Positions 470-63,979 of a DNA stretch of 64,000 bases are shown one piece after another. The DNA comes from Torpedo marmorata (lineage: Eukaryota). Positions within the stretch are counted from its first letter, which is position 1. Each line of letters begins with the position of its first letter. The notes below the pieces were generated by a model, which did not search any database, was not told the origin of the DNA, and was given only the letters and a program-made list of their open reading frames with translations. The DNA is taken from NCBI GenBank assembly GCA_977017645.1, contig OZ360246.1, positions 27,528,001 through 27,592,000 of the forward strand, written 5' to 3'. Position numbers and translations under genes: made by a program.

Positions 470-1750
470 ACATCTCTGGTGTTCCGGCAGTGTCTCTACG
501 CTGCACTCCCTGTCAAGGCAGAGGCAGCACTGGCTGCCACAAAATGGCGGACTCTCCGGAACCTTCCATCGCCTTAAAATGGCGCCCGAGTGGAAAAGGG
601 GAGGGGGAGCAAAGTCAAGGGACAAAGGATTGAGAATGGACGATACTCCTGTTAAAGAAAACCCCACGAACGCAGCAGTTTTCTGATAAAGCTAGTGGTG
701 ACAAGCTCTTTTTGAAGGTTGTATTTCCTCATATCGGTCATTTCGGCGTTCAAGCCATCTAACAATCTTCCCATATCGTTCAGAACGTCCAGAATTTAGT
801 ATGAGTCGAAGGAGGCACTTATACACGGGTTAAACAGGTCTATTAAATGAAAATAGTGGATATCCCTGGAATTGCGCTCTCAGATTCCTCTCTATTCATC
901 GTGCTCCTGCGCCGACACCAGCCTTTCCAGAACTTTCCTCCCAGTCACTGTTGTAAGCTAAACACCAACTCGGCGCATTTGCGCAGCAAAACACTCCCAG
1001 TCCCTTTCTGCGCACGCGTATTTCTACTCCCGGCTCCTGCAGCGGTTGGAAACCCCCCCCCTTGCCAGGGCTGCATTTTCCGCGCATGCGTGGTTAACCC
1101 CGCTTCTTGCTCTGGGAGCAGAATGGTAAGACGACGTCACGCACGCGCAGTGGAGGTCCATTCTTTCGGCTGGGAAGTGGGAGTGGTGGGGGGGGGGAGG
1201 TGAGGAGGGAGCCAGGCGAGGATTTCTCAGCGCGTGCGCGTTGCGGCGTGGAGCCGAATCGACCCGGGAGTTTCGTGGCGCTTGCGCGCCCGCTGTGGCG
1301 GGTTCCGCGCATGCGTGATGCTGCTCAGTTTTCGGGTCTCGGGACGAACTGTTAGCGTCTTGGGGAAGAGAAAAAAAACGCGTCAGGTCGGGCGGCGCGA
1401 GCGAGTGTGTGTGTGTGCGTTAGCCTAATGGTGGGATTGTACCTCAAGGATTAACCCGGCCCTGGGGCCGGCACGATCCCGGACTTCCACACGCCGAAAA
1501 AAGGAGTCCCATGACTCGCTAAGAATGGTACGAGAAACCAGGCACCTCTGGGTGGGGAATTTGCCGGAAAATGTCCGCGAAGACAAGATTATCGAGCATT
1601 TTAAACGGTAAGTGGCCGCCCCCGCCCCCCACGAGATGTGGAGTAAACACTCTTTCCATGTATTATGGTGCGGGCCCGGCTGCGAGCCCGCAAAGGGGTG
1701 AACTGAAACCGGAGAAAGTGCCGGTGTCTTGCTGCAGCTGTGTGAGTGAA
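470..1750 (+). promoter_or_regulatory. SPEN: SPEN CpG-island promoter / 5' region
   Basis: CpG-dense ~900-1750; YY1-type AAAATGGCG at 541 and 576; NRF1-type GCGCATGCG at 1082 and 1308; CRE-like GACGTCA at ~1133; lies directly upstream of the SPEN ATG. Confidence 0.8.
1525..1607 (+). CDS. SPEN: SPEN coding exon 1 (start of RRM1)
   Basis: Translates MVRETRHLWVGNLPENVREDKIIEHFKR, the recognisable vertebrate SPEN N-terminus; 83 nt ending CG|gtaagt (phase 2). Confidence 0.97.
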
Positions 1751-3518: not shown

Positions 3519-5121
3519 GATATTAGGTACATCAGATTAATGGTTGACGGAAATATAACCATCTCAAGAAACTTATTGACTTGATCTGCAAGATTTTCTA
3601 CCTCGTGTTCAAAAAGCTGTATTTAAAGTCGTATTAATTTTGTCAAAAGGATGCAATATGCATTGTTCCAGCACGTCTCCGTCAGACGTTTCGATTCTCA
3701 TCAGGAGTAGGAGGCCATGTGCGGTGAAAAACAAAAGATAACAAGAGGAATCCAGTATAATTTGGTACATTCTATGTTTAGAGAAAGAATTTTAGTTATA
3801 AGCCCCTATCTTTTAGGTTGGTGATGAAGTTACAGTTGCTTAGTGATTTTTCAAAAGGACATTGAATTGTCAGCCTTAAGTTAGATCTAGTTATCAGTTT
3901 AGATTCAGTAGTATTGTAAGAGTTTTATCTAAAATCTCATATTAAGTCATAGATCATGCATTTAATGACTACGCATGGTCACTATGAAGATAAACAGGCG
4001 TTTTATTTGCCTTTTACAACCATTACATCGTGCTTTTTCAACATTAATGTCAAGGGTTTCTAGATTGCTTTACTCGTGTTGTAATTCTATTCCGTTTTTG
4101 CATTTGTATTTCAACGCATCCAGTACGTCATAACAATCTAAAGTATTTAATGACCAAAATGGTTACAAGAATCGAGTTTAGTTGCCGTTTGTAGAATATC
4201 TGGTGTCTACATTTATATTTAATTATAGAAGAGGGTTGTGTTTCTGATATAACAGTTTGAAATGCAAATAAGGCAGTTCCCACCCCTCCCCCACCGGAGA
4301 ACGCAAAATACGCGTAAGGGGGAGGGTGCAAAAGGTTTCAGATAGAAGCGATCTGGAACAGTGTTATACTTCAGGGGGAATGTCCAAATAAACCTATAGA
4401 TTGTGAAGCAAAACTCCAGCTAATTCATGGTGTTACAGTATTCAATTTTCGGTATCTTTTGTATTTGCACTATTTTCAGCGGGAGAATCATAAGGAAATC
4501 ATTAATATTTCTATGTTAAATAGCGTTAGATCGATACGTTTGTTTTCCGTCGTACACGCTTATATAATTGGGGAATAGTAAAAAAGTATAAACAAAGCGG
4601 GCGATGTTAGGTAGCTTGGATGCTTTTTCCAGCAAAAGGGAGAGTTGTCATTAAAATTCAAATCTTTTAAATTATATTGTCCACGCAGTGTTGTCATATG
4701 TTTGTGTGTATATATAAAAAAAATAGCCTAGTCTGGGCCATGAAGAGGGCGTGGCATCGTTCTGGTTTATTTTGCCAAAATAAGACTACTTTTATGAATA
4801 TAATTAAGACTCAATTGAAGTAACAGTCTAATTAGAACAATTATTAGTTAAGACTCAAGAGATTTAACATTTTCTGGAAATGTAATCAATCGATTTTAAT
4901 ACGCAATCAGGGTCAGGGTTTAATGATAGTTTGCACCTGTGATTTTAAAACAAAATACTTCCATATAATAAACATATGGAAGTTTCATCATATTGACTTT
5001 TTGTAATTTCATTTACGTTCTGACAGATATTTGAGTCAAATTCAAATTGGACATTTTCCATTAGTAATAGTAGTCATTAACTACTTTGATATATAATTTT
5101 CCCTCTGCTGTCATATGTATT

Positions 5122-5350
5122 TAAAGGTAAAGGTTCCATTATTGTCACGTAATACTACATTTAGAATGTGACATACATGAAATTCTTTAATTTTTGTCTA
5201 CTGTAAGGCAGACAGAGTCGCTACTTTGTCCAGCGACCCTCACAGAAACCTACAGCACCTGTGTTCCTAGGCGGTCTCCCCTCCAAGTATTGACCAGTTC
5301 TGTGCCTGCTTAGCTTCCAAGATCAGACAATCCCGGTCTTATTCAGGCTA
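5122..5350 (-). mobile_element. 5S rRNA-derived SINE (SINE3-like)
   Basis: Minus strand 5350-5247 aligns to 5S rRNA (CTGATCTTGGAAGCTAAGCAGG...TACTTGGAGGGGAGACCGCCTAGGAACACAGGTGCTGTAGG), 5'-truncated and mutated, followed by a non-5S body and LINE-like tail. Confidence 0.85.
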
Positions 5351-5884
5351 TATTATGATCCATGTGCATATTTCTGTAGTCATTTTTTTTCAAATAATAA
5401 AGAATTATTTTACCAACAAGTTATTAATTGAATTTTAAAATTTCTGATTAATTTAAACAATTGTTTTGTCCATTCACCATATTAAGGCTCATCGTTTTTA
5501 CTGATATGGGAAAAAATAGATTTATTCAGAAGTCTTTGACATGCATAAACTGAATTTTGCATTCCCTATTGGTCTGGGCTTCTTTCTGAGATCACTTCAG
5601 AAGAAGGCTAATGTAAGTTATGTCAGGATTGCAGTTGAGGTTGTTGCAGAATCATCCACTCAACTGCCCCACCTTCAAGACAGTTGCAGCTACGATAAAA
5701 TTTAAAAAACGGCAGTTTTTCTGAGGCCCAAAATATTTTAGAGATGTGTACAGTTATAGATTAATGTAGTTTGTGGAAGTCTCATAATTTTTCTTTTTAA
5801 TTTCATTTATGTTCTGTCTGATTCATATTGGATATTTTCCATTAACAACAGTGGTTGTTAAACTGCTTCACAATTATTTATATA

Positions 5885-14504: not shown

Positions 14505-15675
14505 AGAGGTGCAGTATTGAAAGAGACCCTTCAACCCCACCAAGTCTGTGCTGACCATCAACCCTATTTACACTAATCTTACATCAATCCCAACTTTTGT
14601 TCTCCCCACATTCTCAATTACCCCTAGATACTATCACTCATTTACACACGAGAGGCAATCTAGAATACAGGTAGTCCTCAACTTACAACCTACGCGAGTT
14701 ACGTCCACCCGCACATACGACCGAATTTTTTTTGTATTAAAAGTACTGTATATATGTTGAGATTCTTTATTACAGTATTTACTTGAAGTTCATAAAAATC
14801 GTATCACGAAAAAAGCGGGGTCGCGCTAAATCGGGGTTTCAATAAAGCGTTGTTGCAGTTGAAATTAAAACACAAATGCTGGATCAATGGCCTCTTCATT
14901 ACCCATAATCCCCCACGCAGCTGGAAACGCTCTGCGTTTCTCTGGCACTGGCAGAGCGGTTCCAGCTGCGTGGGGGATTATGGGTAACGAAGACGTGTTC
15001 GGGGCGTCGGGAGCTCGGATGGATGGGCGGCCCAGGCAAGGATCTGCGGTCGGGGGCGTCGGGAGCTCCGGGTGGCTGAGGCGTCGGTAGCTCGCATGGG
15101 TGGGTGATCGGGGCGTCTTGTGCTCCGATGAGCGGGTGGCTAGTGCGTCGGGAGCTTGGATGGGCAGGCGGTCGGGGCGTCAGGAGCTCGGATGGGTGGG
15201 CGGTTGGAGCCAAAAATAGGGGCTGGGGGTGAAAGGTATCCGTTTATGGATCACTGATGGTTGAAATGGAGAAAGGAAGAGCTGTTCCATAAGGATGGGT
15301 TTCCCTTGAATTAGCTAGGACCAGAATCCAAGTAAATACAACTAGAGCTGGAAACAAGGCTTTAAACTGAAAATAATGTTGATGGTGGTGGTAGTGGGGG
15401 TGGTAGCAGATATGCGTGGTAGGATGAATCCGACTTACGACCACTCCTTCAGTCCCAATTACGGTCATAATTCGAGGACTACCTGTATTCAATTAATCCA
15501 CCAACCAGCGCATCTTATGCATGTGAGGGAGAAATGGAGAACTGCTGAGGGTGGAGGGGAGAGCAGGATTGACACACGGGTTCCATTTGCAGAATCCACA
15601 CAAACAGCACCCAAGGTCAGGATAAATTGTTGCTCTCTGAAGCTATATGGCAGTACCGCTATCTGTGCTACCAAT
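14505..15675 (-). mobile_element. Old tRNA-derived V-SINE (HE1-like), split by a Tigger MITE
   Basis: Halves 14505-14667 and 15486-15675 join into one SINE resembling the copy at 63285-63527. Confidence 0.6.
14668..15485. mobile_element. Tigger/pogo MITE with internal G-rich tandem repeat
   Basis: TIRs CAGGTAGTCCTCAACTTACAACC / GGTCATAATTCGAGGACTACCTG, TA TSD; GGTCGGGGCGTCGGGAGCTCGGATGGG-type repeats at ~14995-15205. Confidence 0.85.
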
Positions 15676-15817: not shown

Positions 15818-16138
15818 ATATGGCCGCGTGGAAAGTGTCAAAATTCTTCCCAAAAGGGGCTCGGAAGGAGGAGTGGCAGCCTTTGTGGATTTTGTGGACA
15901 TCAAAAGTGCACAAAAAGCGCACAATTCTGTCAACAAAATGGGAGACCGAGACCTTCGAACGGATTACAATGAGCCTGGCACTATTCCAAGTGCTGCTCG
16001 GGGATTAGATGATACCGTTCCTATAGGAACTCGTACTAGAGAGGTTTCAGGGTTCAGGGGAGGTGGTGGGGGGCCAACATATGGACCACCACCATCACTA
16101 CATGGACGGGAAGGACGTTATGAACGGAGACTTGATGG
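15818..16138 (+). CDS. SPEN: SPEN coding exon 2 (RRM1 remainder)
   Basis: Polypyrimidine tract + cag acceptor; YGRVESVKILPKRGSEGGVAAFVDFVDIKSAQKAHNSVNKMGDRDLRTDYNEPG...YERRLDG; 321 nt; GG|gtaagt donor; phase matches exon 1. Confidence 0.97.
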
Positions 16139-18362
16139 GTAAGTTCCAAGGTTTCTCTAGGCAGGGTTTTGATAAATAGTGTGAGAAGCAGCAACTCATG
16201 TTTAGGTTCCCCAGATGGATTTAATGAGGAAATCTGTACATTCGTGTCGTTGTTGGATATGGAAGAGAATTGAAACCAGTAGCAGCTCTGGCCTCTTCGC
16301 AGTGGATCTATTCTGCAGCTGGCTGGATGACTACTCCTGGGATAAGTTTGGTTAGTTTGATGGAAGGTTTCTCTCAGTTACTATGGAGTTAACCCTCGTA
16401 ATAAGCTTCCCTTTTTCTCCCTGGATTGCAAGCGGTTCCCTCTGGATGTATCCCTTCGATTGAATGGCTATGATATATCATCCTGGTACAACCAACCTGA
16501 GGAATACTATGGAATTACTAGACCTACTGTTTGAGGCAATATTGAAGTGCATTGAAGACTTTCTACAGTGTCATATTGGCTTTGGCTTAAATGTAAGCTA
16601 TTGATGCACGTTCTTTGGATATGAAATATTTCAGTGAAGATATAGTACTCTTTGATCTACTATTTTCCTTGAAGGATATTACAGCAATGATTTTCAACAT
16701 GAATTCATGGAAAGAAATGTGAAGAATTGAGGACGTAACATACACCAGGGTCTTCATATCTGTACTGTTTTGCTTCATCCCGATTGGATCTTGTGGATAT
16801 TTCTGGTCTAACGATTAAATTGTAGAAGGTTACAAACATTTGGAATTTCATTTTCCCGCATAATGGAATGGAGGGCTTTATCTATTCAACGTGGGATTAT
16901 ATTCATCTTAAAGTAGATGTATGGCAGATTGGATTACTTGGTTTGTGATTCTACTTATTATACCAGTGGACTGTCAAAGGCAATCTGTTAGTGGATGCGT
17001 TACATTTTAACTTTCAGATCAAATGTGAAAATCTTTAAGACATGGCAACTGACTGCTAGAAAATGGATATTGAATGCCTTCTACCAGAAGAAAGCACTGT
17101 GCTCTGGGAGTAACGGGTATAGTTGCTTAATATCGACTCGAATTGGGATACATCTATCTACCATCATACATCCATCTGAACGCACTCCGCATCTCAGAAA
17201 GGTCTTGGGGTTTGGGAATTACTATTAAACTTTGGGAGCTATCTGTTTGAGGCGAATGTACGTAACACTGGCATTGGAAGTTTATCTTTCTTGGGCGTTC
17301 AGTTTTCTTGATACAATCCCCAAATCAATGCGGCACTAGCACTATCCGAAGTTGGATTACCCCTTTAAGAGGGGACCAAATTGGGAATGTTTGTACACTT
17401 TTCTCTCCCTAGATTTAATTGGGATTTAGGTCGTGTTTACTGCAGTCTAAAAAGGTTGGTATGCCCTGCCATGCGTATCTTAGCCCCTCTCCTAACCCAG
17501 TCAACCCTTTCTTTCCACTAACTCCAGTAGTCATTAGCACTGCTAAAAATTCAACCAGCACTTAGCCAATAGAATCTCACTGTCTTGCACCTCTGTTAGC
17601 ATCTTGCCTGTCTTTGTCTTTCATGGATTAGGAATTTGTATTTTATGTGTGTCAGCTGATTGCAGTAATGCTTTGGAATCAGCTTGCTTCTGTTCATTGC
17701 TGAAAGGTCAGTGTAAAATGATTCCATAGTACATTGTAAGCTCAGCTCTATACCTCTGCTGATTAAGTCAACTAGACTCTATGCACAGCTTAGTGGCTTT
17801 GCTACTCAGTGTTTTCTGAATCTATAGAATGTCAATAAAAAAAGTAATACTTAATTTAATATCTTGCATGGAAGAAATTTAGAATGGGAAGGCGTAAAAA
17901 TGATATGAATGAAAATAAAATAACTTAAAAGTTATGAGTAGAATTATGTAAATTCCAGAACTTAAATAACTACATTTCTGGATATTGTTATATTTTTACT
18001 TGGATAAATTACTCAACAAATTAATTAGTCTTTGGTAAATCAAGTTCAATCATCATCTTTCCCAAGTTTTAATTAGGAAATAGAAGCTTAATGTTTAGAA
18101 TTATATTAACTGCATTAAGTAATGAATAAGGAATAGTCTACTGTGAAGGATAAACATTGGAAGAAAGTATTGTTTTTTTATCATTTAATAGCTGCTGATC
18201 ATAATGCTTTTGCCAATTCTTTTATAGTTTCCATTTGCTTAAATTAAAATGCTTATTTTGCCAGTGTTTTGAGGGGATATTTAGGGGATCTTCCTGCTCT
18301 GTGAATAATGCTTGACTGATTCTCCATTTTTTTTCCCTTACTCTTCCCCAAACAAAACACAG

Positions 18363-18827
18363 GGCTTCTGATAACAGGGAGCGTACTTATGATCATAGTG
18401 CCTATGGACACCACGATCGTACAACAGGGTTTGATCGTCCCAGACATTATGAACAGGATTACTATAGAGATCCTCGGGATCGAACTATACAACATGGAGT
18501 TTATTATGTGTCAAGAAGTCGAAGTCCTACTCGATTTGAAGCTCATGATCCACGTTATGAACAAAGAGGGAGGGAACAGTTTGCAATATCAAGTATATAC
18601 CGAGATCTCTACAGGGAAGATATTCCTCGGGAAGTAAGAGGGAGACGGCAGGAAAAGAATTATCAGCACAGCAGAAGTCGATCCCCACATTCCTCACGGT
18701 CAGGAAACCAGTCCCCGCAACGACCTAGCCAAGGACGGTCACGACGATCTCCCAGTGGCAGTGGGTCCCGGAGTAGGTCATCAAGCAGTGATTCAGTCAG
18801 CAGCAGCAGTAGTACCAGCAGTGACAG
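18363..18827 (+). CDS. SPEN: SPEN coding exon 3 (Arg/Ser-rich region)
   Basis: cag acceptor; ASDNRERTYDHSAYGHHDR...SRSRSPTRFEAHDPRYE...SRSSSSDSVSSSSSTSSD; 465 nt; AG|gtaggt donor. Confidence 0.96.
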
Positions 18828-21549
18828 GTAGGTGGAGAGGAGCATACCACAAATAGTTTCCATCGACGCATTCCATTTGACGTCTGAATAAAGGAGATCA
18901 TTTGATGGTTATACTAGTCATCAGAAAAGGTTAAGTGTATGAGTTTGCAATTCAACATTTTAAAAACTCAGTTTGTTGTACTTCTTTATAGTACCACATC
19001 TTGTTTTATTCCTGAGAGTTTTCATAAAAGGAATGTACTTTTAGCGTAAACCCACCTTTGACAAAGCGTATGATACGTCACTAAGATACAAGAGTAATTT
19101 ACTGTTGTTACTAATGAAATCCTAGTGGTAAGGATGTATAATTTACATGTCAATTTTATTAAGGAGCATAGTTACCTATTCAAAAAGTTAAAACTGGTCA
19201 CCATTTTGTGTAGAACACGTGGATAAATTGATGATGATGTTGATGAAAGTAGGTGGTAAGATAACTGTAAACTTGAGTATAATCCCTTTCTCCATGTTAC
19301 AAAGTTTGGCAACATTGTTTACATACTTGAATGTAGATCCTCGCCACAACATTATTCAGTTCAGTATGATCATTGCATCAAGCTAGTTGTATCTGGTTAG
19401 TCTGTTCAGATGCTTTGATATTAGAAATATGTGCATTTCAGTTTTTCAATTAAGTAATTTCTGACATGTATACCCTGTGTTCATAATATTGGAAGCCCTT
19501 TTTTTCAGTCACCTGCTTTATAAGGACTGTTATCAGAAAAATCAGGATGTTTTATCAGTTTTTAATAAACATTTCATTGAGAAAGTATAACTTAATATAT
19601 ATTATTCCATGATAATTAAAGGTGAATTTTAATAATGTTCTATGGCATTGTGTATGTAACAATTGGAAGAAGCTTGTGACATTGTGCTTGAATTTTGACA
19701 ATTGTGACATTATAGATGCATTGGATTAAGAAGCATTACTAAATTAGCCACTAATAACTCCATTGAGTCATGGAGTAATGGAAATAAATAGTATAAATGT
19801 ATTTAAGGGGAACTTGTACAGGGTGATTGAGGGAGAAAAGAATGGTATGCAGAAAAGGCTAGACAAAGTAGGGTTGAGGCTAGCTTATGTAGAATGCACA
19901 AATCAGCACAGCATTGGTGTATGGATCCTACACGTACACAATGAAAAATTTACATTTTCTACAGTTCATTTTAGCTTTGCTCACATTTTTTAGAATTTAA
20001 TATTGTTTTACTTGTTGCATTCTGCTACCTGAAGTGGCAAAATAGCTTGAAGTATCTGCATAGTGGAATCTTTAGTTAGCATTTCCACTAGAATGAAGAA
20101 AATTCTCTCTCATTCCTCAAATATATTAAAGGTTTGTAACTTGCACTTTTGGTATTGCATGGTTTAATTTGCACAGTTTAATTTGCATGGTTTATGTGAT
20201 TAGATCATAACTCCAGTGTTTCCAATGGAATAAATCTGGGATTGGGTGCATTGATAGTGGAGTAATGAAGAATCAGGATTAGTAGGGCTGGTTGCACCTT
20301 AGTGTAATTTTTCTAATGTAAACTATGTACATTTGTAAATGTTTTTCAAGATGTTTAGGCAAAATGGCCGGTGTTGATTAGTGTGCAACATAAGCCAACC
20401 TTAATCCTATTTTGTCTTGCCTTTTCATTGTATCATTTTTCGTCCTTTTCCACCCTGTATAGCTTCACCTTAAATACATTTATGATATTCATTTCCATCA
20501 CTCCATGGATCAATAGATTTTTAATGGCTCTTTAGTTATGTTTCACAATTTTATATATCTCTAAAACAGACATACTTTACATTCACTCTTTAAAAAAAAA
20601 AAAATAAAATAACATTCATATTTTTGAAGACCTCTATTTGGTCACTTTTGAAATGTTTTTAAAGAAAACAGTGTTCCATCCAGTTCCGTTTTCACTGATA
20701 GTTCCTTTGTTGCAAATGTGCAGGGTTTTTGATAATTAATCTTCTAGTATAATAAATCAGAATTGTCACCACACTTCAAATGAGATCTAAGGTTCTACAC
20801 AAATGTAACTTGTATTTTTAAAATTTTTATTCTGGCAATGGTTTGTTGCAAAGGTATGCAGTCTTCAAATTTCTCTGGCCAAATTACACAAATCTCACTT
20901 ATCTATTCTGAAATTTGTCATTTACACTTCAGTCCTGCAAGTTTAATTTGTAGCAATCGTTGTTGATATTGATTAGTGTTGCAATTGGTAAATTGTATTT
21001 CTGATTCCCAAGTCCAAATTGCTAATGGAAACAACAATAGTGACACCAATGCCAATGCTGTAACACACCATCTTCCTATTTTCCACCATTCTCAATAAGA
21101 ATCTATAGCTGCTGAGTTTTCTAGTCTGTTGCCAGCTTACTATGAATTCTGCTACTTGGGTCTTAACCCCATGTGCTATTACTTACGTCTAATATATAAC
21201 AGGATTTTACAATATCTAAACATATTATGCTTACTTTAGGATCTTCACCCACTGCTGCTTTCTTCTACAAAGAATAGTCAAGTCTGATCTATCCTTTTGA
21301 AATCTGTGCTAATTTGGAATCATTGAAATTTCCTTTGACCCAGAACTTAAGGTTAGCAAAGATGTGACAGTGCTTCCTGCCAATGAGAATAAAGTATCTC
21401 ATAAAATATCTAATTCCCATATAATAGTTCCAAGTAAATTCCTTATGTCCAGCAGCTTTGATGTAATTGGATTGAATGAACAGCCAATCTCATTAAAGAA
21501 TTTTGGAGTCAGAAAAACAGGAATCAGCCTTTTGGTTAATTTTAGTGTA

Positions 21550-22276
21550 CAGCCATACCTCGACTTACGCCCCATCGAGTAATATCCGACCACAGATACG
21601 TCCGAGGTCATCATAAGGGTGTCAGTGAAAATGATATTCCCCAAACCTGGACACCGAAGGCGAAATGGTTCATTGCTCAACACAGGGAACCGTTGCGTTG
21701 AACAAGAATTCGCCTGGGTCCAATGTTCTTTAAAATAAAACTAAAGCAACCTTTAACTTGTCTCTCCACTTGCTGGCATTGGTTGCGATCTAAACCCGTG
21801 AAAGCCCACGCGTTTCACAGTTGTAACTGACCTCTCCCTCACGCAGAGACCCCGCCAAGTAGTTAGTTTCTGAAACCTCGCCTCGTCAGAACTCGAGTGT
21901 GAAGCTGAATGGTAACACGCCCAAGCAAAAGTTGAAAAAATGAAATGCTTGTGCAAGTTATTAAGGGGGCTTTTACGCTGATGATTAACACGCAAAAAAA
22001 AACTTTGTGAACCCACCGACGACATTCGGTCTCCCGAAATCTACTAAACCAGATCTTAATGACAAAGTCGAAGCTTGTCAATGTATGTGCTGCCCTCTGA
22101 ACGACATCGCTTCCTGTAGACTTAGCACAAGGGAGTTTATCTGAAGGGTATTTAATTTGGGTTCACTAAGACCAAGATAGATTTGACATTAAAACATATA
22201 ATGATCAACTTACGCCCAAATCGATTTGCGTCCCCACTTCCAGAACGTAACCCGGACACACGTTGAGTAATGACTG
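21550..22276. mobile_element. Tigger/pogo non-autonomous element
   Basis: TA-CAGCCATACCTCGACTTACG ... CGTTGAGTAATGACTG-TA termini. Confidence 0.7.
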
Positions 22277-24024
22277 TATTGCTAACTAAAAGATTGACCA
22301 ATACAATACAATTAAAGATGAAGCTGAACTATCCCACTTAGAAACATTTTAACATCCCATACATTTTGATATATTTATAAGAAATTGACAATGCACATAT
22401 CAGTTTACTGTGTATAGTGGTTTGTAAAAAAAAAAAAAAAACAACTAAATTTAAATTAGTTCAAAATTCAAACCATTGGTTTAAATTGTGCTGGAGCAGG
22501 CTGCAAACAATTATGAAAATGCCATGTTAGCAAGTTTGGGATTTCCATACCAGACTGTACATGTGTGCAAATTCTAAAGTTCCTGTTAGTTGTGTGGAAT
22601 TGTGAAAGTGTATACAGGTAGTCATGATGACATTATTACCACAAAACTACCGGTATCTGCTTATTTTCATGAAGCTCACTTTTCCCTTTTGAATAAAAAA
22701 TTTCTCTCTGCAATCCTCTTAACACAATTTCCTTCGGAATGGATTTTTATAAATACAAAATTGTGCACCTGCTATTACTTCCTGTCTTTCTTTTTGTGTG
22801 CATGGAACAATTGTGGGATATTGCCTCTTCAGGGGTGTGCATATATTAATATTTAAGAAAAAACAGCAACTGTGAATAAAATTAAACTGGGACACATGAA
22901 TTCCTCCTGTGAAAGTGTCCCAATAGCCTTTATTTGTGAGAGAGAGGTCAGATGTTCTGTGAAAAATTTGGAGTGTTTAGTACCTAACATTTTTAACTAT
23001 CATTGTCTTTTCTAGCGCTTTTCAGCAATGCATGCAAATCATAATATACTGAATATGTTTTGATACTTTATATAGATCAGTAAGTGCATTTATATGTTGC
23101 ATGCAAATTCACTTGCTCTGAATATGTGAGAATTTTGTGATGTTGTTGAAATCAGCCTGTTCCTTTACAGATACAAGATAGATCAATGTTAATGGCCCTG
23201 ATTCTCTTCAAATATGAAACTAAATGTTCCTTTACTGTGTAAACATCACACATTTGCATGTTTTTAACGGATATTCAGAGTTCTGAGAATAAGTTGTGAT
23301 GCATTACAAGGATTTTGTTGGAAAGGACGTTGACAGCTGCCACCAGTCGTAGGGTTCTATTTGGTTGTGCTGTGTCACATTTATTGCATAACTGTTTAAT
23401 CAACACCTTTCTTAAACAAGTTCACCAAAGGTTCAGAATTCAAAATCTTTAACACTAATCGCCACATACCACCCTGAAGCCCTGCTACCATCCCTCCCAG
23501 TCACTATGATATGCTAGTTTTCTATAAATGATGATGTTTTAGGTTGTTAGATTGTCTCAGTTACTGAACCTTTCCACTGAAAATATCCAGCAAATGCAGG
23601 TATCCTTTATAAACTAAGAATTGAAATTTGGTATAATTGAAATAACAATACCAGAATCTATACCTATTGTCGATGAAAAAATTCATGACACTTTAAAAAT
23701 GTTTGAGGTTAGTTAAAGTTGTGGCTCAACATACTAATGCTAAATAGTGTGTGAATTTACTAACAAGTGCTCTGACTGCAATCCATTTTGGGCTACCCCT
23801 GTGTACCTCCTCACTCTTCACATGTAGACTAGAAATGGAAATGGTGCAGTTAATTGTTCTCGCAATGTCTAATCTTCAAAATGGAGAGCAGGAGATTTAT
23901 AGCATTTTTAAAAAGCAGTGACTCTCCAGCATTAGTAATTTATGTTTGCAGTGAATAAAGCTACAGTGCATACGTTGATCTTATAATTTTAAGATATTCT
24001 GCCAGATTAAAGAGATTGGGAATA

Positions 24025-26600: not shown

Positions 26601-27092
26601 ACCCAGACTGAAGAATTTCCAAGGAATTTGATTATATACTTTATTTTCTTTCCTTTGTTGCTCATATAGATTTAATGGGAATTATTGTTTCTGTTTTTAT
26701 ATTAGATAATCTAAGAGCATTTAGTTAAATCATGGATGTTCATCCTCACACACAGCACTAAAATAAAACACAAAACTCAAGAAATACTCAGTAGGTAAAA
26801 ACTATGGAGAGAGAAACCGAGTTAGTGTATCAGGTTAATGGCCTTTGATTAAAGCTGGGGATGTGTTACTGGTAAAACAGATTTAAGATGCAAAAAATTG
26901 TTTGCTGTAAGAGAAATAACATAGGGGAATGTCTGTGATTAGGTGAAGGAAGGGCAGGAGCGATTAAATGATTTAAAGGGTAATGGAACCAAGTAAAAGT
27001 GGGTAATAAAGACATTACACTGGTACCCCACTGAGAGCTCTCTGGAACATTGATTCATTATAGTGTTTTTGGTTCTCCAGTAGGAACATTCA

Positions 27093-27906
27093 CAGGTACA
27101 TAATCTTTTATCCGAAACCCTTGGGACCAGACACTTCGGAATTCGGAATTTTTCGGATAATAGAATAATAGTAACAGCGGTACGTTAAGTAATTGTGCTG
27201 ATTTCAGATTCGCGTAAAACAAAGACACACTCCAACTAGAAGGGTCTCTGGACGGGGAGGAGGGGGTGGTGGCGGCGCTGGAGGGGGGGTGGTGGCGGCG
27301 CTGGACGAGGAGGGGGGGGGGGTTTGCGGCCGCGCTGGGCGGGGTGGTAAATGATTGTTTCATGACAATCAAACCAGTCAGTGGTATACGTTCACATCTT
27401 CGTTGTCGAACCCACTCAATCAGCACACGGTCAAGATCTTTGTTTTTTGCCCTATGCAATGTTTTCCTATTTTTCATTAGTTTCTGGTCATCACTGTCAC
27501 TGTAAAACTTCAACAACTTATCTTTCTGCTTCTTTAAGTCATATATGGTGGTAGTTTCCACACCATAATCTTCATTAAGACGCCGCACAGATACACCACG
27601 ATCAAGCTTCGGAAATAACTCTACTTTCTGCGCTATCGATAATGACAGACGCTTCCTTTTCTGCTTCTCTCTGTTACCCATAGGGGACTCTGCAGCTCTT
27701 TTTGACATTTTCACAGTCTTCAAAGTCCGTGAGCAGCAGAGGCACGTCTGACTGATAGGAGCACTGAGACACGGCGCTGGACGGGGGTGGGTCGCGTCAG
27801 GTCATGTTTGGCGCCATACGCGAGCTTTGGTGTGCAGATGACATCCATGGAAAAAATGTTAGGTTTTCGGAGTTTTCAGAATTTCGGATTAAAAATTATG
27901 TACCTG
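27093..27906 (-). mobile_element. Internally deleted Tigger transposon retaining the transposase DNA-binding N-terminus
   Basis: TIRs CAGGTACATAATCTTTTATCCGAAA / TTTCGGATTAAAAATTATGTACCTG; ORF 27723-27058 encodes KRKRLSLSIAQKVEL...YGVETTTIYDLKKQK...LDRVLIEWVRQRR (psq/CENP-B-type HTH); no DDE domain. Confidence 0.9.
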
Positions 27907-52907: not shown

Positions 52908-55900
52908 TTACAAATTTAATCTCATTATTTGGGTATACGGGCGCCATATTTGTAAAAAAGTAGAATATTTATTCCTCAAATTATATGTAATTTTTTCTAA
53001 AGGAATATAACTTTGAATTTCAGCATGCCACCTTTGCATATCCAAAGATGTATCGGATTTCCAAGTCATAGCAATACATTTCCTCACTACTGCTAAAGCT
53101 AATTTAACAAATACCAATTGATAATTTGATAGCTTCAATTTAGGTCTTGCACCCTCGATATTCCCTAAAAGAGCTAAATCGGGGGTTTGTGGAAATACAA
53201 TTCCTGTAACTTGTTCTAAAAAATTTCGTATATCTAACCAAAAGGTTTTTATCTTGGGCCAAGACCAAGTTGAATGTATAAAAGAACCTACATCTTCACC
53301 ACATCTAAAACATTGGTCAGATAATTCTGGTTTTATTTTATGTAGTTTCTGTGGTGTTAAATATAATTGATGCAAAAAATTATATTGGACTAATCTATAT
53401 CTTACATTTATAGTATTAGTCATAGAATCTGTACATAGATTTTCCCATAATTGTTGATCAATTGTAATATTTAAATCTGTTTCCCATCTCTGCTTTGATC
53501 TATTTAACCCTTGTTTAGGAGCTCTAGCTTGTTGTAGTTCATAAATCTTAGAAGTAAATTTTTTAATAATTCCTCTCCTAATCAAAAGTTCTACTTCATT
53601 ACATCTAGGTAAAGACATAGTTGGTCCCAATTTATCTCTCAGATATGCTTTTAATTGAAAATAACAAAAAAAAGTATTTTGTGATTATGGCATATTTGTT
53701 CCTCAACTGTAAAAACAACATTAATTGACCTGTTTCATAACATTCTTCAAGATTTACAATCCCATTACGGTGCCAAATATTCATAAATTGATTATCTTTT
53801 GAAAAAGCTATAAATGGATTTTGATTTAGTGGCGTTTTAGGCGATATGGATCCCTTTATTCTAATTTCATCTTTTATTTTATTCCAAATATTAAGTAGGT
53901 GTTTCAATAATGGTGTATCTTTAGCAGCAGTTAATAATTTCGGTTCCCATTTATAAATAAAATCTTCTGCTATCCATTCTCCTATCTTGTTCAGTTCTAT
54001 ATTTACCCACGCTACTTTTGTTTCTTTGAAAAAAGATGCAAGAAATCTCATTTGAACAGCTCGATAATAATTTTTAAAATTAGGAAGTTGTAAACCTCCT
54101 AATTTGTATTTCCAAGTTAATCTCTCCATAGAAACTCTTGACATTTTATCTTTCCATAGAAATTTTCTTACAATATTTATTTAATTCTAGAAAAAAATTT
54201 CTGAGGGATTGAAATGGGTAATGTTTGAAAGATATATTGTATTCTTGGAAATATATTCATCTTTATACAATTAACTCTTCTAACTAAGGTTATAGGTAAA
54301 TTAATCCATTTTTAAAAATCTTCATCAATTTTTAAAAATAGTAATGAATAATTCAATTTGTATAAATTTTTCAAATTGCTATCTGAACGTATACCTAAAT
54401 ATTTAATACCCTCTTTTGGCCATTTAAACTGTCTGACAATGTGTATAATCACCTTCCGTCAATGACATTATTTCACTTTTATCCCAATTTATTTTATAGC
54501 CCGAAACCTTTCCATATTCCTCCAATTGAATATATAATCTTTGCAAAGATATTTCAGGATCAGTCAAATATATTAAAATATCATCTGCAAATAAACTGAT
54601 TTTATGTTCTTCTTGACCTATCCTAAAACCCTTAATTTGTAAATCAGAACGGATTTTCTGGGCAAGTGGTTCTATGGCTAGAACAAATAAAGCTGGGGAT
54701 AAAGGACATCCTTGTCGACTAGATCTTGTCAAATTAAATGGCATAGACATTTGTCCATTAGTTACTACTTTGGCTTTAGGGTTATTATATAATGCTTTAA
54801 TCCAATTTAAAAAATTAGTCCCAAATATAAATTTCTCTAATACTTTAAACAAAAAATCCCAAGATAATCTATCAAATGCTTTTTCTGCATCTAATGCAAC
54901 TGTAACACTCAATTCATCTATTTTCTGAGCTAGATGGATAATACTTAATAATCGAGCTACATTTTCTGATGCTTGCCTTTTTTTTACAAAACCGGTTTGA
55001 TCCATATTTATTAATTTAGGTAACAATTTATTCATTCTATTTGCTAAAATTTTCGCAACTATTTTATAATCTGTATTTAATAATGAAATAGGTCTGTAAG
55101 ATGAGGGTTTTAAAGGATCTCTGCCTTTTTTTGGAATCACTGTAATTATAGCCGTCTAAAATGTTTCTGGAAGAGTATGGGTTTCCATAGCCTGTTATAA
55201 TACTTGCATGAATATAGGAATTAACAAATCTTTAAATTCTTTATAGAATTCAGGTGGAAATCCATCTTCTCCAGGTGATTTATTACTTTGCAAAGAAGTC
55301 ATAGCTTCCTTTACTTCTACCTCAGTAATTATCTGTTTGCTCCTGTATATTTAATCTGGGTAATGTTATGTGTGATAGATAAGTATTTATCTTATTCTCA
55401 TCTCTTAAAGACTCAGAGCTATATAATTTTGAATAAAATTTTTTAAAAGACTCATTTATTTCTTGAGATTTATATGTCACTACAAATGTCTTTTTTGATT
55501 GCATTGATTGTTCTTGAAATCTGTTCCGCCTTTAATTGCCAAGCTAATACCTTATGTGATCTCTCACCTCGTTCGTAATATCTTTGTTTCATTCTTATTA
55601 TTGCTTTTTCAGTTGTATACGTTTGTAACGTATTATATTAAAAAATTTTATTAATCGTATCTACGTTTATCTTAAGGAGAAATTTGTAGGTCTTTCTCTA
55701 ATATTGTAATTTCTTTTTCTAATTGATCTGTCTCCCTCGTATATTCTTTTTTAATTTTAGAAGTAAAACTTATGATTTGGCCTCTTAAATACGCTTTTAA
55801 AGTGTCCCATATTAAAAATGTATCATTTACCGAATTCAAATTTGTATCACAAAATAACTGAATTTGTGTTCGAACAAACTCACAAAAATCTTTTCTTTTC

Positions 55901-56661
55901 AACATCAAAGAGTTGAGTCTCCACCTATAAATCGATTTCTCCTTATCATGCATTTCCATCGTTATTAATAAAGGCGAATGGTCAGATAAAATCCTTGGTT
56001 TATAGTCCGCTTCTACAACCCTGGCTTGCATTTGGGCGGAAATCAAAAATAAATCAATTCTTGAATAAGAGTCAAATCTAGTCGAATAAAATGAATAATC
56101 TTTTTCTCTAGGGTGAATCCTTCTCCATAAATCTATTAAATTAAAATCTCTCATCAAATCCAATGTTACCTTAGCTGCTTTCGTTCTTCTTATTACCCGT
56201 GTAGATCTATCTAACAATGGATCTAAACAGAAATTAAAGTCTCCTCCCATTAAAATATTATCATGTGCCTGTGCTAGATTAAAAAAATATCTCGAATGAA
56301 TTTCTCATCGTCAACATTCGGGGCATACAAATTTTTAAAAGTCCACATCTCAGAATATATTTGACAATGTACCATTACAAATCTCCCTGCTGGATCTGTA
56401 ACAACATTCTGAACTTTAATTGGAAGATTCATTTTTATCAAAATCACCACACCTTGATTTAGAATTAAATGAAGAGGACATTTGATATCCCACCCAATCC
56501 CTTTTTAATTTTAAGTGTTCTTTTTCAGTCAAATGTGTTTCTTGAAGAAAGGCTACATAAACTCCAGGTTTCTTAATATATGTTAATATTCTCTTCCTTT
56601 TTACGGGCCCATTTAACCCATTAACTTTAAAATTTAAAAACTTTATTAATTTATTCATCAA
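52908..56661 (-). pseudogene. L1 ORF2 (endonuclease + reverse transcriptase), frameshifted
   Basis: NGLNGPVKR, FLQETHL, MGGDFN, YSRIDLF, LSDHSP, YRPISLLNTDYKI, LDAEKAFD, RQGCPLSP, LFADD, GGLQLPN, CFRC; several stops and frameshifts. Confidence 0.95.
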
Positions 56662-57134
56662 AATATATTAAAAAAATATGTAACACCTCCATGCAGTAAA
56701 TAACTTTATATGTCTGAGCGTACTTCCTCAAGCAATCCAAAAAAAAGAAAAAAATAATTAAATACAAATATAAGAGATATATAATTCTACAGTTATACTT
56801 ATAACAATAACAAAAACCCTCCCAGTAAGTGTTGTCTAGTTTGGCAACAACTAACTCCCTCTATTTTACGGGCTGTGACTAAAGTCACAAAAACACACAT
56901 AATCCCACAGTAATCAACACCCCCCCCACTCCTCCCAACTCCCTTGGTATTATTTTTATATCTTAATCACTTCATTAATTCAATTTAAACAATTAATTAA
57001 TTAATCAACTATATTTAACAAATTATCCCAAAGATCAAGAAAAAAAGAATAGAAAGAAACAAAATATTACTTCAATTTCTTCCGTCTCAATTATACAATT
57101 TGAATAAAAAATCAGAAAGGAAAAAAAAATTAAA

Positions 57135-58331
57135 TCAGTCTAGCAAATTCACATTGGTCGCAGCTGGCTGTATTGCAGGAAGGTTCCGAGCATATTCCTC
57201 CGCTTCATAAGGATTGTTGTAAAATTTATTTTGTTCTCCCGTAACAAAATCCTTCAAAGTTGCAGGATGTTGAAGAATAAATCTATATCCTTTGTCATAA
57301 AGAATCTTCTTAACTGGGTTAAATTCTTTTCTTCTCCTTAAAAGATCTTCACTCATGTCGAGGTAAAACAAAATACTATCCCCTTCCCATTGTATTGGAC
57401 CATTTCTGTCCCTCGCTCCTTTCAGTGCCAGACTAAGAACTTTCTCTCTATCTTGATAGCGGAGGAACTTTATCAGTATAGAACGTGGTTTCTGATTAGA
57501 AGAAGGTTTTGATCTGAGAGCTCCATGTGCTCTTTCCACTTCAATTGGCTATGGAAAGTTTTCTTCTCCCAGTACTTTAGGGAACCACTTTTGAAAAAAG
57601 TTAATCACATCCAAACCTTCTTTTCCTTCTGTAAGACCTACTGTTTTAATATTGTTTCTTCTGCTAAAGTTCTCCAAAATATCAACTTTTTCAACAAGTT
57701 TTTGATTTATTGATACCAAACCAGTGATTGTATCTTCTGTATAAGAAACCCTTTGCTCAACTCGTTCTACATCTTGTGTTCCAGTCATTCTTTCTTCCAT
57801 TTTATCCAATCTTTTCTTCATTTTATTTACAACTTCTAATACTTTATTAGTTTCTGCCTTTCCATCTTTAAATCCCTTTTCCATTTGTACTTCCATTTGT
57901 ACTTGCAATGCTTTAATTTGCTGCGTTATAATTATAGTTTGAGGACTTAATTGAGTATCCTCCATTACCTCCTCTTGTATCTCTTCTTCATCTTCTGCCT
58001 CTTCTAATGAACCTCTTCTGGATCCCATCTCTTCCTCCGGCGCTGAAGACTCCGACTTCTCAGGGGTTTGCTGCACTCCCAGTAATGCTTTGGGCATTAC
58101 AGCAGTGCGCATGCGCGGTTTCTCGCGCGTACGCATATGCATTGCACTTCCGGGTTCCCCACCGACGTCTTCTCTCCGTGGTAATGGCTGAGAGATGCCG
58201 GCAGAGGTCCCTTCCATAGGGTCAAAGAATCGGGTGGCAGCACGAACTCCAGTCCCTTGTTTCAACGTTGCGGTAGGCCTAACTTCTTTCTTCTTCTTTT
58301 CTTCCCGTCGGGTTCCAGGAGTCTGTAGTCG

Positions 58332-58366
<35 letters not shown>

Positions 58367-58372
58367 AGGCGT
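57135..58372 (-). pseudogene. L1 ORF1 (disrupted)
   Basis: Coiled-coil, then LENFSRRNNIKTVGLTEGKEG, ERAHGAL...PRSILIKFLRYQDREKVL; broken near 57545. Confidence 0.85.
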
Positions 58373-58519
58373 TTTGGAGGTAAAGTAGATATATTTAAAT
58401 ATCGATTAAAGATATATATAAAGTTAAAACAGTACTTATTTTGGACTTTTTTTACTAATTTCCCAAGGGAGTCAGAAGCTTACGTGTTGATCCTACGGCA
58501 TCACGTGACGTCCCCCCTG

Positions 58520-63906: not shown

Positions 63907-63979
63907 GGCTCCATAGCTCAGTGGTTAGAGCACTGGTCTTGTAAACCAGGGGTTGCGAGTTCGTTCCTCGCTGGGGCCT
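63907..63979 (+). tRNA. tRNA-Thr(TGT)-like sequence, probably a SINE head or retrocopy
   Basis: 73 nt cloverleaf GGCTCCA...TGGGGCC-T, anticodon loop CTTGTAA; T-loop TTCGTTC lacks the conserved A58; no T4+ terminator, runs into a SINE-like body. Confidence 0.8.

Follow-up and report, generated by a model that had tools for sequence, protein, structure and literature searches.

Among the silencing factors that Xist recruits, SPEN is the principal one, and the RNA signal that SPEN follows is disputed. The second intron of SPEN in the window, by which we mean the whole 64,000-nt stretch of DNA analysed here, raises the question of whether the SPEN pre-mRNA carries such a signal itself: an earlier note had taken this intron for a repeat-free, GGAU-enriched and hairpin-rich element through which SPEN would silence its own gene. 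We find that the part in question, 16139-17454, is a splicing element, an alternative extension of exon 2 that carries a stop codon, and not a hairpin array.

A second donor extends SPEN exon 2

The 5′ end of SPEN is represented by three exons on the + strand of the window, and intron 2 spans 16139-18362 (2224 nt). The exons and the two forms of exon 2 are as follows.

1525-1607 (+): 83-nt coding portion of SPEN exon 1; tblastn against named SPEN proteins gives 96% over 28 aa, and the donor was placed from sequence
15818-16138 (+): SPEN exon 2, 321 nt; contains the remainder of RRM1 and terminates at the productive donor
16139-17454 (+): alternative exon 2 extension, 1316 nt; 13 UGGAU, 18 GGAU, single copy, present in the spliced X19 contig
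16140-16142 (+): TAA stop in the productive donor, in frame with exon 2, read from sequence
18363-18827 (+): SPEN exon 3, whose one acceptor serves both splice forms

Use of the second donor is documented by a 489-nt contig from run X19 of a related organism, which aligned on 17005-17455 with 24 mismatches and 1 gap and whose 16 unaligned end letters equal 18364-18379, i.e. the start of SPEN exon 3. As exon 3 begins with the same base as G17455, the junction connects 17454 to 18363 and removes a GT-AG intron. This junction was obtained from one contig in one of the four runs mapped, a run of another organism whose RNA status is a guess. Among the other mapped runs, X18 gave no match, and X2 and X13 gave only chance pieces of 18-38 nt; such gaps in run coverage are uninformative because the filter removes some contigs. 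Part of the region was found in 20 runs from 6 organisms, none of them recorded as RNA, and further presumed-RNA runs contained at most 0.44 of the region's words, a value above the exons-only share that we did not count as evidence. A near-invariant stretch of the X19 contig at 17219-17455 (2 differences in 237 positions versus 21 in 214) was likewise put aside, its boundary having been picked post hoc. From the X19 junction it follows that 16139-17454 can be retained in the RNA, where it lengthens exon 2 by 1316 nt.

Beyond the productive donor, translation would at once meet the TAA at 16140-16142, and 1312 nt separate this stop from the junction that follows; the predicted product has 135 aa and comprises RRM1 only. 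The identical immediate stop follows exon 2 in all three other loci to which we compared the window (L002, L003 and L004, described below). Because the stop codon directly follows exon 2, the extended SPEN form is unproductive. The last 42 nt of the extension (17413-17454) are preceded by an acceptor-like site, which was read through in the X19 contig; the corresponding mouse cluster has two junctions only. This 42-nt unit was considered as a coding mini-exon and rejected: it is in frame in the window, but the bird-like locus L003 shifts the frame inside it and the teleost locus L002 has 43 nt. As the unit measures 42 nt in L003 and 43 nt in L002, its frame is not preserved.

At the acceptor of exon 3 (18340-18362), an A-rich run separates the pyrimidine tract from the AG, and for this reason the acceptor looks weak. 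Annotated SPEN proteins include several with 280-310 aa that terminate at exon 3, a possible sign of short forms that end within intron 3.

Both splice-site blocks are conserved in bony vertebrates

For comparison we used loci from a metagenome scan, which provided at least four (L002-L005). One of these, L005, proved to be an intronless invertebrate-type mRNA and was dropped before any counts were made. By its exon-2 peptide, L003 matches an eagle protein at 100% identity and is called bird-like here, and L002 matches percomorph fish proteins at 99% and is called a teleost locus; L004 is a more distant copy, probably teleost as well. The alignments of these loci to the window divide the extension and its surroundings as listed here.

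16139-16369 (+): 5′ block adjoining the productive donor; 70% over 243 columns against L003, E 1e-16
16370-17347 (+): middle of the extension, without local alignment to other lineages, with UGGAU density retained
17348-17668 (+): 3′ block around the alternative donor; 79% over 331 columns against L003 (E 5e-66), 80% over 99 columns against L002 (E 4e-15)
17360-17374 (+): 5-bp C/G stem, identical in L003, absent from L002 and L004
17413-17454 (+): decoy-exon-like 42-nt unit, with a conserved acceptor-like site on its 5′ side and the alternative donor on its 3′ side
17455-17463 (+): alternative 5′ splice site; its GT lies at 17455 and another, overlapping GT at 17459, and 14 columns are invariant in the three lineages aligned
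17464-17530 (+): C-rich block of the intron, kept in L003 and partly in L002; includes another acceptor-like AG (17526-17527)

The alignment to L003 thus consists of two blocks, 16139-16369 (70%) and 17348-17668 (79%), and that to L002 of 17404-17498 (80%). The core common to the three is formed by the distal donor and the acceptor-like site 42-43 nt upstream of it, and the unit between these sites has 42 nt in the window, 42 nt in L003 and 43 nt in L002. The distance from exon 2 to the distal donor amounts to 1316, 1301 and 1818 nt in the window, L003 and L002, respectively. Conservation among bony vertebrates, whose absence the earlier note had named as a refuting outcome, is supported here for the splice-site blocks. 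The distal donor is kept in both loci that extend far enough (L002 and L003); it was not found in L004, a contig that stops 1354 nt past its exon 2 donor. The teleost locus also aligns to the bird-like one, with 76% identity over 71 columns (E 3e-7), and because of this match the argument from conservation is independent of the source lineage of the window. From its repeat types and genome of 6.2 Gb we take the source for a cartilaginous fish; protein searches named none, and a tree of 12 exon-3 rows put the window on a long branch with no firm place. Between the end blocks, blastn of all six pairs of extensions gave no match, the matches being located at the ends only. We did not use the apparent conservation of GGAT positions between the window and L003 (9 of 18, compared with 13% of all 4-mers), since the aligner anchors on shared words.

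In L002, three exons of another gene, which we take to be ANKRD13-like, start 115 nt past the distal donor (3730-5750), and SPEN exon 3 is absent there; this arrangement reflects either a chimeric contig or a partial duplication.

UGGAU words are in excess in all four loci

The counts given in the earlier note, 18 GGAT and 6 ATCC in 16200-17430, were reproduced exactly. How unusual 18 GGAT are depends on the null model: base shuffles of the same region predict 5.35 (z 5.8, p 0.0015 after correction for the best of 256 words), dinucleotide shuffles 9.5 (nominal p 0.004, corrected 0.57) and trinucleotide shuffles 13.9 (p 0.049). The claimed enrichment therefore fails the best-of-256 correction under dinucleotide shuffling when the window is taken alone, but it is repeated in the three other vertebrate loci, and this repetition makes the otherwise borderline excess firm. 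The word counts in these loci are an out-of-sample test of the proposed motif. Taken alone, the three loci have TGGA and GGAT as their top two 4-mers, and TGGAT is the top 5-mer both in these three and across all four. Since L002 and L004 are both fish and related, the four loci represent three lineages, not four.

TGGA is also the top 4-mer in this part of the window, with 23 occurrences versus 1-2 of TCCA, a strict strand bias. The sharpest word is TGGAT, which occurs 13 times in the extension, while other segments of 1316 nt contain at most 7 (mean 1.7, n=601). The count per locus is 13 in the window, 14 in L003, 13 in L002 and 14 in L004, with z between 5.5 and 6.3 in each. Pooled over the four loci, TGGAT reaches 54 against 13.0 expected from dinucleotide and 31.1 from trinucleotide shuffles, and GGAT 81 against 34.5 and 59.4, respectively; none of 1000 shuffles reached either count. 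A TGGAT excess at p < 0.05 was found in none of eight flanking regions, though the distal half of intron 2 shows a mild GGAT excess (p 0.012 in the window, p 0.016 in L003). In L004, the word array at 4870-5050 assumes a repeated GGATGTAC-like form.

The extension is not rich in hairpins

The earlier note had further described the element as rich in hairpins and had named four stems. All four are present in the sequence, one of them with three pairs only, but the general description did not hold: perfect 4-bp stems number 24 against 30.0 ± 5.2 expected, and none of 44 stretches of 100 nt folds with a z below -2. ATCC-loop-GGAT arrangements occur twice versus 0.41 expected (p 0.08). A consensus fold of three sequences, computed as a check for covariation, has double changes in 2 of 29 pairs and an unfavourable covariation term of +0.45. 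Two of the four named stems are retained in L003 and none is in place in L002 or L004; at the stem near 17344, L003 lost the ATCC arm and retained GGAT. An Rfam search of the intron returned no relevant match at the gathering score or at E up to 10. In the folds of the four loci, GGAT words were more paired than average, a result that lacks a control for G content and was not used.

Relation to mouse Spen, Xist Repeat A and other splice switches

According to Wei et al. 2021 (PMC8327914), intron 2 of mouse Spen is m6A-marked, is shown with an RBM15 CLIP track and contains an m6A-dependent alternative 5′ splice site, and segments of this kind are called poisonous by the authors. Mouse exon 2 has 321 nt, the two junctions of the pair lie 1213 nt apart, five m6A peaks tile this 1213-nt segment, and the distal form has a PSI of 0.34, which is halved to 0.17 when METTL3 is lost (p 0.002, or 0.156 after adjustment; all PMC8327914). 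The window element shares with it the gene, the intron, the acceptor, the 321-nt exon 2 and an unproductive form and is likely its orthologue, the mouse donor (1213 nt compared with 1316 nt in the window) being matched by position only. The extension in the window is depleted of DRACH (14 versus 25 expected). The report, as far as its available text goes, covers mouse only and gives no sequence code (PMC8327914).

Carter et al. 2020 report that mouse SPEN binds Spen RNA, 'across exon 2' in the wording of the legend, and that Spen RNA goes up on SPEN loss (PMC7282817). Nascent Spen transcription is up without SPEN as well (bioRxiv 2025.05.21.655143), and self-binding and self-repression are also cited in PMC10274648. 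These data supply the feedback that the element would serve; they place self-repression at the level of transcription only (PMC7282817; bioRxiv 2025.05.21.655143), and the published texts, in their available parts, name no intron 2 site or motif. The statement in the earlier note that SPEN binds its own early intron is thus borne out as far as binding of its own RNA in mouse is concerned, but not for the location, which the legend gives as 'across exon 2'; within the available texts, our literature search found none that places SPEN binding inside intron 2. Nothing on SPEN intron 2 was found in the accessible portions of PMC11429800, bioRxiv 2020.08.25.267435, PMC13754005 and PMC10660550. A literature search that covered few subscription papers found no account of the element in species other than mouse and none of a UGGAU code within it. 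The splice form itself is already known from mouse, and we did not find its deep conservation or a motif code matching the GGAU of Repeat A in print. Thesis or unpublished work is said to deal with a SPEN autoregulatory RNA in intron 2.

By our own count on the printed unit of Xist Repeat A, its positions 16-19 read GGAU (PMC10870365). Deletion of GG16,17 or a change of U19 cripples silencing, SRSF1 contributes to SPEN recruitment on Repeat A, and RRM2-4 of SPEN bind the U-rich spacers in vitro (bioRxiv 2025.05.21.655143). Like Repeat A, the extension carries multiple GGAU words in the 5′ region of a nascent RNA and, in mouse, overlaps with m6A and RBM15. Repeat and Rfam searches of the extension found no tandem unit family, GC-rich core or U-rich spacers, and unlike Repeat A it shows no excess of CAWCG or GAUAC and would act, if at all, on its own gene. 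Since both the tandem unit and the CAWCG or GAUAC excess are missing, the extension does not belong to the Repeat A family. By analogy, it may work like Repeat A.

The poison exons of SR-protein genes and the element in Ythdc1 intron 11 are examples of unproductive splicing. With these the extension has in common that a deeply conserved splice switch introduces a premature stop in the gene of an RNA-binding protein; it differs by its donor shift of 1.3 kb and by a middle that keeps words and not alignable sequence. Decoy exons have been described in OGT intron 4 and in similar detained introns (PMC12017769), and the 42-nt unit resembles the OGT decoy exon as a short conserved intronic exon-like unit with acceptor-like and donor sites. 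In contrast to the latter, splicing from its donor leaves the sequence before it in the RNA, and no use of the acceptor-like site was seen in X19.

A splice switch with UGGAU words as a candidate SPEN feedback element

The explanation that we favour, and regard as reasonably probable, is that the stop-bearing extension, with its UGGAU words loading SR proteins, SPEN and the RBM15-m6A writer, lowers SPEN output. Splicing from the near donor of exon 2 would give SPEN, and splicing from the far donor would keep the stop-bearing 1.3-kb segment, with the 42-nt decoy-like unit perhaps helping to define the far donor. On the nascent RNA, the UGGAU words would likely provide an assembly site for SR proteins, SPEN and the RBM15-m6A writer, and the assembled proteins would favour the far donor and bring SPEN corepressors to the SPEN gene itself. 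UGGAU would in this case be a SPEN-recruiting signal, probably via SRSF1-type proteins as on Xist Repeat A; we infer that SPEN reads these words. The extended RNA would be degraded or retained in the nucleus, and more SPEN would then mean more distal splicing together with less transcription, a negative loop. Our own observations comprise the second donor with its conservation and its use in a single contig from a relative, the stop, and the UGGAU excess in four loci; m6A and RBM15 over the segment, the METTL3 dependence of the distal donor, SPEN self-binding and self-repression are taken from the mouse papers. Counting against this explanation are the single contig behind the junction, the adjusted p of the mouse splicing change, the depletion of DRACH (pooled, 98 versus 125 expected), the full Repeat A words, which are not enriched in the four loci pooled (GATAC 5 versus 4.9, CAWCG 5 versus 3.0), and, given that RRM2-4 bind U-rich spacers in vitro, the scarcity of U runs in the extension (TTTTT 1 versus 5.6). 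The idea of SPEN feedback put forward in the earlier note is by this analysis probably right. Its motif and its conservation stand and its hairpins do not, and it had missed the splice switch, which has splice-site blocks at both ends.

Other explanations have to be weighed against this one. The extension could be an m6A sensor read by RBM15, METTL3 and YTHDC1, with SPEN merely its target and self-repression residing elsewhere, e.g. in exon 2. This corresponds to the published mouse reading (PMC8327914) and would suit the 'across exon 2' of the SPEN CLIP legend (PMC7282817); we nevertheless regard it as unlikely, because it leaves unexplained why UGGAU is kept when GGAC (18 versus 20 expected) and DRACH, at the pooled counts above, are not. 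That the UGGA words are plain SRSF1-type enhancers defining a 1.6-kb exon, so that SPEN is tuned to SR-protein levels without SPEN feedback, appears quite improbable to us. With 27 GGA per kb, the extension has a density like that of an exon and double the level of the flanking introns, which speaks for such enhancers, as does the binding of SRSF1 to (U)GGA clusters (bioRxiv 428615). The same source found the leading U to be without effect on SRSF1 binding; when GGA counts are held fixed, GGAT (81 versus 59) and TGGA (105 versus 88) are both still enriched, and GGAGGA is not (2 versus 2.1), all of which argues against enhancers of this plain type.

The version of the earlier note, in which the SPEN RRMs bind GGAU hairpins directly and silence transcription while splicing is incidental, draws on the protection of GAUAC adenosines of XIST Repeat A by SPEN in vitro (PMC10870365), on the enrichment of GGATAY (17 versus 3.7 expected) and on the two named stems kept in L003. 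With hairpins not in excess, folding not stable, the covariation term unfavourable in three sequences, no named stem in place in L002 or L004 and the splice donor as the best-conserved block, we consider it very improbable. Least credible of all, and largely refuted already, is a motif excess that arose as a by-product of composition or mutation, or conserved blocks that function as DNA. GGAT in the window alone does fail the corrected dinucleotide test, and a repeat 1 kb upstream has 14 GGAT per 1230 nt; against this stand the replication of the excess in three non-aligning loci, the strict strand bias of TGGA over TCCA, the lack of an excess in the eight flanks and a splice junction in use at the conserved block.

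Beyond the feedback explanation favoured here, we propose tentatively, and with more doubt than confidence, that the UGGAU array is an ancestral vertebrate SPEN-recruiting code for cis-silencing and splice-switching in the SPEN pre-mRNA, kept as word density and not as alignable sequence since before the split of ray-finned fish and amniotes, and that its GGAU was later reused by Xist Repeat A. The element offers a natural, single-copy, non-Xist substrate, and its four diverged versions share one word and two splice-site blocks. As these diverged versions have one word in common, the RNA signal of SPEN becomes directly testable. SPEN is dosage-sensitive in people (PMC13754005), and the conserved distal donor is a site to block for testing whether SPEN levels can rise.

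Repeats in and around intron 2

In a search of the 6.2-Gb genome, both halves of intron 2 gave one candidate each, i.e. the sequence is single copy, while control stretches from introns 1 and 3 gave 7015 and 615 candidates in the same search. Intron 2 indeed contains no dispersed repeat, as had been claimed, but intron 3 is equally free of them over its initial 2.7 kb (18828-21535), and for this reason the repeat-free state is not special to intron 2. The repeat-free zone spans about 6 kb starting at 15500.

Upstream of this zone, in intron 1, lies an 830-nt repeat (14665-15495) with very numerous copies at 85-89% identity, matching ends, an inverted part inside and inner short repeats that are GGAT-rich. 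Intron 3 contains a local inverted duplication (19730-19909 and 20371-20544) whose arms of about 175 nt are 76% alike and 460 nt apart, with no other copy among the matches listed; pairing of the two arms could give a long stem some 0.9 kb past exon 3. A 740-nt repeat family follows at 21535-22290; its copies show 92-95% identity, and matches to its ends are more numerous. A 247-aa frame on the minus strand (27058-27801) presumably resembles the start of a Tigger/pogo transposase. Further into intron 3, a broken LINE-type element with ORF1- and ORF2-like pieces runs antisense to SPEN (52908-58394, minus strand), and an Rfam tRNA match of 67.6 bits at 63907-63979 (+) represents a tRNA gene or a tRNA-derived repeat.
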